From NCBI RefSeq assembly GCF_055900595.2, contig NZ_CM148325.1: 64,000 bases of DNA, one strand, 5' to 3'. Below, piece after piece: positions 3,689 through 7,848 of this stretch. Within the stretch, counting starts at the first letter, position 1, and each line of letters opens with the position of its first letter. The position numbers and the translations under genes are program-made. Under the pieces are notes generated by a model. That model saw only the letters and a program-made list of their open reading frames with translations. It was not told where the DNA came from and made no database searches.

Positions 3689-3979
3689 GTTACGAATCCT
3701 TGAAAACTTGTCTCAGTCAGACCAGACAGTCACACACAGTGGAAGTGTGCTAAGTATAGCCCTGATTAAACATATTACGGGTAATCGTCTGGATTATTAG
3801 GCTATTTTATTTGCCATTTTGGCACCGGGCAGTGCTCGCCATCCTCACGTACTTGTGTACGCTCCGGTTGCTGCGCGCTGGCCGTGACCAAACTACCTGC
3901 AACAATAACGCCTTATAACCAGACTTACGCCCCCGCGATACTTACGCGGAATCTTACCCTTATTTATCCATCACGGGAA

Positions 3980-4705
3980 TTATTCCGTGATTAAAGTCCC
4001 TTCTTTTTCACCCATTACCACACGGCGCAGCGCACCCGGTTTGTTCATGTTGAAAACACGAATCGGTAATTTATGGTCACGAGCCAGCGTGAAGGCCGCC
4101 AGGTCCATGACTTTCAGCTCTTTTTCCAGCACTTCGCTGTAAGTCAGTTGCTCGTACATCGTTGCGGTTGGATCTTTCGCCGGATCAGCAGTAAACACGC
4201 CGTCAACTTTGGTTGCTTTCAACACCACATCAGCTTCAATTTCGATACCACGCAGGCAAGCTGCAGAGTCGGTGGTAAAGAACGGGTTACCTGTACCGGC
4301 GGAGAGGATCACCACACGATTGTTGCGCAACAGGCTAATCGCTTCTGCCCAGCTGTAGCTGTCGCACACGCCATTCAATGGAATAGCGGACATCAGACGA
4401 GCGTTCACATAGGCGCGGTGCAGTGCATCACGCATTGCCAGGCCGTTCATTACGGTCGCCAGCATCCCCATGTGGTCGCCCACAACGCGGTTCATACCCG
4501 CTTTCGCCAGACCAGCGCCACGGAACAGGTTACCCCCACCAATCACCACACCAACCTGAATACCCAGTTCAACCAGTTCTTTGATTTCCTGAGCCATGCG
4601 ATCCAGTATGCTTGCATCAATACCGAAGCCTTCCGTGCCCTGCAGAGCTTCGCCACTCAACTTAAGCAGAATGCGTTTATAGACGGGTTTTGCATTGGTA
4701 GCCAT
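3980..4705 (-). CDS. pyrH: UMP kinase
   Basis: 241-aa [24 protein letters not shown]; synteny tsf-pyrH-frr. Confidence 0.92.
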
Positions 4706-4814
4706 GTTTCTTTCCTGAGACTGTCAACGATTGAAATGAATTAATACCGGCGACATTGTACGTCGCTTTTCAGCGCAGCCCCATAAGGGTTAGCTGAATT
4801 TACAAGATGGGCGC

Positions 4815-4839
4815 AAAAAGAAGCCGCCCTCAGGCGGCT
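4815..4839 (-). terminator. intrinsic terminator after tsf
   Basis: Minus strand GCCGCC-TGAG-GGCGGC followed by TTCTTTTTG. Confidence 0.7.
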
Positions 4840-4851
4840 CCTTTTCGATAA

Positions 4852-5703
4852 TTAAGACTGCTTGGACATCGCAGCAACTTCTGCTGCAAAGTCAGTCTCA
4901 ACTTTCTCGATGCCTTCACCTACTTCGAAGCGGATGAAGCCAGTCACTTCAGCGTTATGCTCTTTCAGCAGCTGACCAACAGTTTTGCTTGGTTCCATAA
5001 CGAACGGCTGACCGGTCAGAGAAACTTCGCCGGTGAATTTCTTCATGCGGCCTTCAACCATTTTCTCTGCGATTTCTTTCGGCTTACCAGACTGCATCGC
5101 GATATCCAGCTGAACCTGGTATTCTTTCTCTACCACTTCAGCGGAAACGTCTTCCGGTTTGATGAATTCTGGTTTGCTTGCAGCAACGTGCATAGCGATG
5201 TGTTTAACCAGCTCTTCGTCAGCGCCTTTAGCAGCAACCAGAACGCCGATACGCGCACCGTGCTGATAAGAACCCAGAACGTCGCCTTCCAGCGCAGCAA
5301 CGCGGCGAATGTTGATGTTTTCACCGATTTTCGCTACCAGCGCAACACGTTCTTCTTCGAACTGTGCTTTCAGAACTTCAACGTCAGTGATTTTGCCAGC
5401 AACAGCTGCGTCCAGAACTTTGTCTGCGAACGCCTGGAAACCAGCGTCTTTTGCAACGAAGTCAGTCTGGCAGTTAACTTCCAGAATGATGCCGTAGTTG
5501 CCGTCGATTTTGGTTTTGATCACGCCGTCAGCAGCAACGTTGCCTGCTTTTTTCGCTGCTTTAATAGCACCGGACTTACGCATGTTTTCGATTGCCAGCT
5601 CGATGTCGCCGTTAGCTTCAGTCAGTGCTTTTTTGCAATCCATCATGCCTGCGCCAGTACGCTCACGCAGCTCTTTTACCAGGGATGCGGTAATTTCAGC
5701 CAT
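4852..5703 (-). CDS. tsf: elongation factor Ts
   Basis: 283-aa [30 protein letters not shown]; downstream of rpsB. Confidence 0.92.
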
Positions 5704-5761
5704 TCTAAAATCCTCGGAGATGTGATCTGCCCGGCATTAAACCGCACAGATATAAAAGTGA

Positions 5762-5788
5762 AAAAGGGGGCCATATGCAGGCCCCCTA
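5762..5788 (-). terminator. rpsB-tsf intercistronic hairpin (partial terminator/attenuator)
   Basis: Minus strand AGGGGGCC-TGCATAT-GGCCCCCT followed by TTTTT, between the rpsB stop and tsf start. Confidence 0.65.
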
Positions 5789-5960
5789 ACCAAACGTGTA
5801 CTACCTGGTCTATAAGGGCTCTCCCCCTTCATATTTCGCGCCGCAGATGCGTTGTCTTCGCTCGCTCATCCCGGTCACTTACTGATGTAAGCTCCCGGGA
5901 ATTCTCGAGCTTGCCGCCTTTCTGCAACTCGAACTATTTTGGGGGAGTTATCAAGCCTTA

Positions 5961-6908
<948 letters not shown>

Positions 6909-7053
6909 TCAGACGATGAATTTTCTATTATAGAAAACGTTCAGTGGCACGTTTGGCGAAATTCAGAATGATTCTCAATTTGCCCGGGTGTGATACCATT
7001 GACGACACTTACATATATATTGTCGGTATCACCGACGCTGATGGACAGAATTA

Positions 7054-7848
7054 ATGGCTATCTCAATCAAGACCCCAGAAGATATCGAAAAAATGCGCGT
7101 CGCTGGCCGACTGGCTGCCGAAGTGCTGGAAATGATCGAACCGTATGTTAAACCGGGCGTCAGCACCGGCGAGCTGGATCGCATCTGTAATGATTACATT
7201 GTTAATGAACAACACGCGGTTTCTGCCTGCCTCGGCTATCACGGCTATCCGAAATCCGTTTGCATCTCTATTAATGAAGTGGTGTGCCACGGTATCCCGG
7301 ACGACGCCAAGCTGCTGAAAGATGGCGATATCGTTAACATTGATGTCACCGTAATCAAAGATGGTTTCCACGGCGACACCTCAAAAATGTTTATCGTCGG
7401 TAAGCCAACCATCATGGGCGAACGTCTGTGCCGCGTAACGCAAGAGAGTCTTTACCTGGCGCTGCGCATGGTAAAACCGGGCATTAATCTGCGCGAAATC
7501 GGCGCGGCAATTCAGAAATTTGTCGAAGCAGAAGGCTTCTCCGTCGTTCGTGAATATTGCGGACACGGTATTGGTCGCGGCTTCCATGAAGAACCGCAGG
7601 TGCTGCATTATGACTCCCGTGAAACCAACGTCGTGCTGAAGCCGGGAATGACCTTCACCATCGAGCCAATGGTCAACGCGGGCAAAAAAGAGATCCGCAC
7701 CATGAAAGATGGCTGGACGGTAAAAACCAAAGATCGCAGCTTGTCTGCACAATATGAGCATACTATTGTGGTGACCGATAACGGCTGCGAAATTCTGACG
7801 CTACGCAAGGATGACACCATCCCGGCGATAATCTCGCACGAAGAATAA
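7054..7848 (+). CDS. map: methionine aminopeptidase
   Basis: 264-aa ORF, MAISIKTPEDIEKMRVAGRLAAEVLEMIEPYVKPG; divergent from rpsB. Confidence 0.92.
   Translation: MAISIKTPEDIEKMRVAGRLAAEVLEMIEPYVKPGVSTGELDRICNDYIVNEQHAVSACLGYHGYPKSVCISINEVVCHGIPDDAKLLKDGDIVNIDVTVIKDGFHGDTSKMFIVGKPTIMGERLCRVTQESLYLALRMVKPGINLREIGAAIQKFVEAEGFSVVREYCGHGIGRGFHEEPQVLHYDSRETNVVLKPGMTFTIEPMVNAGKKEIRTMKDGWTVKTKDRSLSAQYEHTIVVTDNGCEILTLRKDDTIPAIISHEE

Follow-up and report, generated by a model that had tools for sequence, protein, structure and literature searches.

The window, meaning the whole 64,000-nt stretch of DNA that was analysed, is E. coli DNA and carries rpsB, tsf and pyrH one after the other on its minus strand. 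The rpsB–tsf spacer is 100% identical in many strains, and a window position equals 196560 minus the K-12 position (NC_000913.3). The locus contains the following features:

3980-4705, minus strand: pyrH
4852-5703, minus strand: tsf
5704-5960: rpsB–tsf spacer, 257 nt
5760-5787, minus strand: intercistronic intrinsic terminator from a terminator scan, an 8-bp stem with 7 G-C pairs followed by UUUUU
5869-5900, minus strand: palindrome of the first-pass annotation, the ERIC central hairpin; stems 5900-5895/5869-5874 and 5892-5887/5877-5882, loop 5886-5883
5961-6686, minus strand: rpsB
6714-6800, minus strand: t44/tff leader RNA (Rfam RF00127, 84.6 bits), present as expected

The t44/tff RNA at 6714-6800 is the known S2-binding leader of rpsB.

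The first-pass annotation had described a short palindrome at 5871-5900 that resembled the centre of an ERIC repeat, lay in the rpsB–tsf spacer about 85 nt from the intercistronic terminator, and might be a relic mini-repeat or a structured element with an effect on the S2 to EF-Ts expression ratio. The palindrome itself was confirmed: the 28-mer CCGGTCACTTACTGATGTAAGCTCCCGG occupies 5871-5898 on the plus strand, within that interval and within the spacer (5704-5960), and the terminator stem (5787-5765, then the T-run) is 84 nt away. It belongs to an imperfect inverted repeat whose arms, 5869-5882 and 5887-5900, are 79% complementary around a 4-nt loop. The likeness to ERIC held as well. The 21-nt core GAGCTTACATNAGTAAGTGAC is matched exactly and occurs twice in the window against 0.02 occurrences expected by chance (none of 100 shuffles reached two), and the ERIC sequence given for comparison, CCAGTCACTTACTTATGTAAGCTCCTGG, is the exact reverse complement of a second window copy at 48487-48514. 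The spacer 28-mer differs from that copy at 3 of 28 positions, two of which form a compensatory pair (A-U to G-C); the G-C form of the pair adjoining the core was found in 17 of the 47 family copies described below.

The ERICs of enterobacteria are MITEs, non-autonomous mobile repeats 127 bp long. The family, also called IRU, was reportedly described by Sharples and Lloyd in 1990 and by Hulton et al. in 1991. For a family model, 93 distinct core-bearing elements were collected from metagenome and viral contigs. Four chance hits, one rpsB–tsf orthologue and six hybrid copies were dropped, and the remainder was reduced to 47 sequences of less than 90% mutual identity, which were aligned and converted into a covariance model. 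With the rpsB–tsf orthologue left out, all 47 are independent copies at other loci, chosen so that the family test would not be circular. The element and its arms were located as follows:

5819-5948 (about 5821-5948), minus strand: ERIC (IRU) element from the covariance model, in the forward (ERIC2-primer) orientation in the rpsB 3′-UTR/intercistronic RNA
5921-5947, minus strand: left (5′) terminal inverted-repeat arm in the RNA, 27 nt, 74% complementary to 5821-5847 and paired in the MFE structure
5821-5847, minus strand: right (3′) terminal inverted-repeat arm in the RNA, from the inverted repeat and the MFE structure

The palindrome is the apex of a complete ERIC element on the minus (transcribed) strand. 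The model matched 5819-5948 with 128.5 bits (E 9e-39) over its positions 1-130 of 130, and only three non-standard pairs were present in the aligned copy. The span of the model match is 130 nt, that of the inverted arms (5821-5947) is 127 nt, and that of the indel block treated below is 133 nt. The copy aligned along its whole length with the one at 48.4 kb, and its identity to the family consensus was 81%, compared with a family median of 80%. Each of the two ERIC-PCR primers, ERIC1R and ERIC2, whose sequences were confirmed from the literature, had 3 mismatches in 22 positions. The predicted fold comprises 42 pairs with an MFE of -65 kcal/mol, and its architecture is that of three other copies. 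That the eye had caught only the central 28 nt, and that the copy is fairly diverged, with three mismatches to each primer, might suggest a chance palindrome or a relic fragment unrelated to any complete repeat. This reading is refuted by the full-length match to an independently built model, by the direct alignment to the 48-kb copy, by the existence of the outer inverted arms and by allele boundaries that coincide with the ends of the element, and we regard its probability as negligible. The terms short and relic mini-repeat were therefore abandoned, since what surrounds the palindrome is a complete ERIC, matched end to end by the family model; the family had been named correctly and the extent of the element underestimated. 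The feature is already known, in the sense that ERIC has been a recognized family since 1990-91 and this copy stands in the K-12 reference genome; the element is unmarked in the K-12 reference record and in the PGAP records checked.

Like other ERIC/IRU elements, the copy is about 127 bp long, has a central inverted repeat in the primer region and terminal inverted arms, is predicted to fold as RNA into a long imperfect hairpin, lies outside genes but is transcribed, has dispersed counterparts elsewhere in the genome, and is present or absent at orthologous sites of different strains. An E. coli genome has ERIC-like sequence at 3-21 places, with a median of 13. The rpsB–tsf copy differs from the family in its termini, which read CUCCCCC/GGGGGAG and not UAUAC(U/C)C/G(A/G)GUAUA, in 6-7 extra nucleotides at the 5′ junction, and in the lack of a recognizable TA target-site duplication. 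Termini like these were seen in one other copy (L206). As a repeated extragenic palindrome transcribed within an operon, the element also resembles REP/BIME sequences, and like them it could stabilize the upstream cistron as a 3′ hairpin; it belongs to another family, however, as its length and sequence fit ERIC. REP units are about 35-40 nt long and G+C-rich and have no sequence in common with the rpsB–tsf element.

The consensus fold of the 47 family copies contains 35 pairs, 23 of which are still paired after changes on both sides. The core is invariant in the alignment, partly because the copies were collected by core match. In all 47 members the forward-strand RNA was predicted to be more stable than its complement (mean -58.1 vs -46.2 kcal/mol), and the rpsB–tsf copy is transcribed in that forward orientation (-65.2 vs -51.2 kcal/mol). 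This predicted bias is compatible with an RNA-level constraint on the ERIC family; it does not show a function at rpsB–tsf.

The window contains a second, canonical copy:

48436-48565, plus strand: ERIC, 126.2 bits, E 5.2e-38, model positions 1-130 of 130

This copy, which served as internal reference, has no mismatch to ERIC1R or ERIC2. Upstream of it lies panC, whose ORF has a match to Pfam Pantoate_ligase; the ERIC begins 4-5 nt past the panC stop codon, and a YhgA-like Transposase_31 ORF (48653-49573, minus strand) is convergent with it. Relative to the upstream gene, both canonical window copies have the same orientation.

Several other arrangements of ERIC-like sequence were observed. 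The spacer between pyrH and frr contains about 142 extra nucleotides (3795-3916, minus strand) in the window, K-12 and 042 that are missing in IAI39, so that the spacer is 291 nt long with the insert and 149 nt in IAI39; it is also 149 nt in SMS-3-5 by annotated coordinates. The insert is a long imperfect palindrome (MFE -55 kcal/mol) whose centre, GGAGCGTACACAAGTACGTGA, matches 18 of 21 ERIC core positions in the direction of transcription, and the ERIC model aligned to it end to end and weakly (22 bits, E 3e-4). Its sequence suggests a diverged element of ERIC type within the transcription unit of rpsB and tsf, and in the strains checked its filled/empty pattern is that of the rpsB–tsf element. 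In metagenome loci L128, L149, L153, L170 and L177, another palindromic repeat (...CAAATCTGCCGGGAGCAGATTTGAACGCTG...GCAGCGGCCC...) takes the place of the ERIC sequence beyond the central hairpin, and these hybrids suggest a recurrent composite or an insertion hotspot inside ERIC. Head-to-tail tandem arrays of ERIC-like sequence with a spacing of about 120-140 nt were found on the metagenome contigs L116 (three copies), L109 and L222 (two each), unlike the solitary copies of E. coli.

The ancestral rpsB–tsf spacer contains three conserved hairpins, in the order H1, H2 and terminator. H1 begins at the rpsB stop codons (AUAAGG...CCUUAU, with an inner GCUC/GAGC stem). In the window these structures lie as follows, downstream of rpsB and around the element:

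5955-5962, minus strand: 5′ side of the H1 base (AUAAGGC), overlapping the second rpsB stop codon, kept in the spacers of 7 Enterobacterales and now closing the ERIC hairpin
5812-5821, minus strand: 3′ side of the H1 base (GAGCCCUUAU), pairing with 5955-5962 in the fold of the filled spacer
5788-5810, minus strand: hairpin H2 (GACCAGG...UUUGGUU), with the same pairing in filled and empty spacers and conserved across genera

No covariation was detected in H1, H2 or the terminator in the small alignment of 7 spacers, in which the sequence itself is conserved. In the predicted fold, the ERIC occupies the apex of H1, with its long hairpin stacked on the remaining H1 base, and the pairing of H2, the terminator and the tsf-leader hairpin is identical in filled and empty spacers. 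The suggestion of a structured element was supported by predicted folding, as the filled spacer has an MFE of -108 kcal/mol with z = -7.0. Published in-cell structure probing (PAIR-MaP) covers the rpsB 5′-UTR only.

The element is polymorphic in E. coli. Among 5,426 complete genomes, 4,094 (75.5%) have the filled 257-nt spacer and 1,327 (24.5%) the exact empty junction, TAAGGC-ACGCTCGTAC-GAGCCC, which gives a 134-nt spacer. Only two discrete spacer alleles were seen, and the contigs found by an exact-sequence lookup of S2 were all E. coli-like and carried one or other of these alleles. The window and K-12 were aligned with Nissle 1917 and an ST80 strain, which defined the difference:

5822-5954, minus strand: filled-allele block of 133 nt, where the empty allele has the 10 nt ACGCTCGTAC
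Filled strains: K-12, 042, O157:H7
Empty strains: Nissle 1917, ST131, IAI39, SMS-3-5

The block consists of the ERIC and 6-7 nt (TTGATAA) of unexplained origin at its 5′ side. We take K-12 to belong to phylogroup A, 042 to D and O157:H7 to E among the filled strains, and Nissle 1917 and ST131 to B2 and IAI39 and SMS-3-5 to F among the empty ones; the phylogroup pattern is that of these seven named strains. The S2 and EF-Ts proteins are identical between filled and empty strains. Conservation of the palindrome across Enterobacteriaceae did not hold, as the element is missing both from the empty E. coli genomes and from the 116-149-nt spacers of the six other Enterobacterales among the matches listed (two Enterobacter, a Klebsiella, Superficieibacter, Yersinia and Photorhabdus, a set with no Salmonella, Citrobacter or other Escherichia). 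The empty state is ancestral, because the empty-type motif is common to these six and to the empty E. coli allele. Judged from these alignments, the rpsB–tsf ERIC is a derived insertion, and its distribution fits a single insertion on the branch that separated from the B2 and F lineages. Among carriers the element is nearly invariant, with an identity of 99% or more in 5,321 genomes.

TA target-site duplication is a property of these MITEs (PMC2229807, Table 1), and TA...TA flanks were seen in other copies, for example L085 and the 48-kb copy. A clean duplication of this kind was not found at the rpsB–tsf junctions, whose flanks read ...GGCTTGATA|ACTCCCCC and GGGGGAG|AGCCC; TA is missing from the 3′ side. 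A TA is present in the H1 loop of the empty site, ACGCTCG-TA-CGAGC, yet a simple duplication cannot be rebuilt from the junctions. The insertion may not have been a simple transposition, or the flanks may have been altered since. The missing duplication does not expel the copy from ERIC, because duplication is a property of the insertion event and not of the sequence family. One locus (L122) with a similar right flank was considered as an independent ERIC at the same site in another genus and was rejected, since neither rpsB nor tsf is nearby. A divergent empty allele with 92.7% identity was observed in E. coli Es_ST80_L1 (L003), in which H2 is 2 nt shorter, the 5′ arm of the terminator has one G fewer and the T-run is longer (CCCCCCTTTTTTTTT).

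The element is transcribed with its operon. SMRT-Cappable-seq (Supplementary Data 1) contains transcripts from the TSS at 189712 to a TTS at 190800 with hundreds of reads, and K-12 position 190800 is window position 5760, an experimentally observed 3′ end just past the T-run of the terminator. In one growth condition, 232 of 1,340 reads from this TSS end at 190800, 42 end within 50 nt downstream and 906 read through; in the other, the corresponding numbers among 1,037 reads are 63, 852 and 16. Since these reads end at or after the terminator or read through it, the element is contained in both monocistronic rpsB and rpsB–tsf mRNAs. A promoter scan found no sigma-70-like site in 4700-7100.

The same region was found to coincide with a small RNA family:

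5766-5875, minus strand: match to the Rfam family CssrA (RF02798, 'Chromosome-encoded Shigella sRNA A'), 136.6 bits (gathering 93), E 4.7e-29, model positions 1-111 of 111

The likeness extends over the whole 111-nt model, and the stretch 5766-5875 runs from the ERIC, of which it takes in the 3′ half, through H2 to the terminator hairpin. What sets CssrA apart is this composition: the 3′ half of an ERIC makes up about the first 55 nt of the model, and conserved H2 plus terminator the remainder. In S. flexneri, CssrA was detected as a Northern band of about 110 nt; a predicted terminator supplied its 3′ end, and its 5′ end is only a calculation from the size of the band (PMC3071730). The neighbours were given there as map/rpsB with arrows <- -> -> (PMC3071730, Table 1). 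Contrary to that table, the Rfam CssrA model maps between rpsB and tsf, and either the table label or the flanking-gene assignment is off. Two further Rfam families were observed to align with canonical ERIC sequence in a test on 48436-48592: V_AS5 (RF02818, 'Vibrio RNA AS5', a 129-nt model) aligned end to end with 49.8 bits, under its gathering score of 96, and the 5′ part of Ysr49 (RF02766) aligned there too. Like CssrA, the V_AS5 and Ysr49 'sRNA/antisense' families seem, from these alignments, to derive from ERIC.

SMRT-Cappable-seq (Supplementary Data 2) lists tsf-containing transcripts (tsf-pyrH-frr) that start at 190705, which is window position 5855 inside the ERIC 3′ half, and a tsf-containing start at 190794 (window position 5766, the last C of the terminator stem). 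Both are given without read counts, and 190705 is not among the counted start-end pairs. Neither position is in the short-read Cappable-seq TSS list, which has no entry between 190441 and 190832, while the operon TSS scores about 690. No convincing promoter-like hexamers were seen by eye upstream of 190705.

These data bear on whether CssrA might be an independent sRNA gene, with its own promoter in the 5′ half or centre of the ERIC and a terminator that doubles as the intercistronic one. The Rfam match lies above the gathering score, and the 5′ end at 190705 is 20 nt downstream of the nominal CssrA start and, counted to 190800, would give an RNA of 96 nt, near the ~110 nt of the band. However, no promoter-like hexamers were seen, the 190705 start comes without a read count and outside the counted pairs, short-read Cappable-seq has no TSS in the interval, and the published 5′ end was calculated from band size and not mapped (PMC3071730). 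We consider such a gene quite improbable, and we hold the same low expectation for the joint proposal that the insertion created both a new sRNA and a secondary, S2-independent tsf promoter. From its sequence, CssrA instead resembles the end portion of the rpsB 3′-UTR more than a gene of its own, and it is probably a processing fragment. Processing is likelier than an internal promoter because no promoter-like sequence or reproducible primary 5′ end was found inside the element, the uncounted 190705 start being the one observation to the contrary, and it is from this that we infer the processing origin of CssrA.

On a reading that follows the idea of the first-pass annotation, the hairpin might act in cis, as an entry site for RNase E or RNase III or as a barrier to 3′ exonucleases, uncoupling the stability of rpsB from that of tsf and tuning the S2:EF-Ts ratio in the lineages with the element. 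According to De Gregorio et al. (2005), as relayed in PMC2229807, PMC3184786 and PMC10969869, Yersinia ERICs in mRNA that are co-transcribed with flanking genes shift upstream and downstream transcript levels in an orientation-dependent manner, with an RNase E site in the 3′ TIR. The rpsB–tsf copy resembles the Yersinia elements of those accounts in being co-transcribed with its flanking genes, in lying directly 3′ of a stop codon (it starts 7-13 nt past it) and in folding into an RNA hairpin. Also in favour of a cis-acting role are the very stable predicted spacer structure (z = -7) right after the stop codon, the accumulation in Shigella of a stable ~110-nt RNA over the ERIC 3′ half, and the strong family covariation together with the universal forward-strand stability bias. 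On the other side, a palindromic mobile element can also show covariation as a result of template switching or of constraints on its DNA, no change is predicted in the downstream structures, and the element is missing in about a quarter of E. coli genomes and in other genera that encode the same S2 and EF-Ts. Any role in the S2:EF-Ts ratio would thus be lineage-specific and dispensable, and not essential.

Orientation also speaks against such a role. In a census of 76 independent loci with crude ORF calling, stop-adjacent ERICs were more often in the opposite orientation (23 vs 11, p = 0.058), so that the rpsB–tsf copy belongs to the minority. We had expected both window copies to be in the preferred stop-adjacent orientation, and the census pointed the opposite way. 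In these accounts of the Yersinia work, RNase E destabilization is reported for one orientation only, whereas the rpsB–tsf copy is apparently in the other, rarer stop-adjacent one; with orientation labels as in the reviews, it is probably not in the orientation with reported destabilization. Given the census result, the model of RNase E unmasking is not simply transferable to this copy. Literature searches on RNase E and RNase III found, among the papers they covered, none with RNase cleavage mapping in the rpsB–tsf spacer, and a search joining ERIC, rpsB and tsf found nothing relevant. The near invariance of the element, its forward orientation and its G-U and compensated pairing are compatible with some RNA-level constraint. 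Taking both sides together, we regard the cis-regulatory reading as unlikely, and a modest regulatory effect of the element as possible but doubtful.

The explanation that we favour, and consider highly probable, is that a complete ERIC was inserted into the apex of H1 and has since been inherited vertically as a structurally insulated, nearly neutral passenger. A single insertion into the apical part of the conserved H1 would have taken place on a deep E. coli branch leading to phylogroups A, D and E, and presumably also to B1, C and Shigella, with vertical inheritance of the element thereafter. It is co-transcribed from the tff-rpsB promoter into abundant terminator-ended transcripts and read-through rpsB–tsf mRNA, and its RNA is predicted to fold on itself into a long imperfect hairpin on the remnant of the H1 stem, with no predicted change in the folding of H2, the terminator or the tsf leader. 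The data show what the element is, how far it extends and which way it is oriented, the polarity of the insertion and its frequency in the population, and that transcription passes through it and terminates downstream. The main molecular consequence would probably be extra stable RNA structure, and an endonucleolytic cut in the ERIC structure, together with the terminator hairpin, could yield the ~110-nt CssrA fragment of Shigella. Near-neutrality in the rpsB 3′-UTR is the most likely state of the element; we infer it because the element is missing in about one-fourth of E. coli and in other genera, S2 and EF-Ts are identical with and without it, and the downstream structures are predicted to be unchanged. 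The element is an ordinary one and is likely to have little effect.

The finding carries little weight as a discovery, the family being long known and the locus part of the K-12 reference genome, but it changes how the CssrA annotation should be read. The 5′ half of CssrA is an ERIC repeat fused to the rpsB–tsf terminator region, and the annotation is best read as a 3′-UTR fragment. Among the strains checked, those of B2 and F can also be told from those of A, D and E by a simple marker, the length of the rpsB–tsf spacer. It is improbable, in our judgement, that the insertion changed an essential translation operon in one half of E. coli by giving rise to a lineage-specific stable CssrA and shifting the stability or expression of rpsB relative to tsf. 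If this were true, phylogroups A, B1, C, D and E and Shigella would differ from B2 and F in S2:EF-Ts stoichiometry, or would have gained a trans-acting 3′-UTR-derived sRNA. The clean filled/empty polymorphism in an essential operon offers a natural allele pair for testing the effect of a transcribed ERIC hairpin on mRNA fate.
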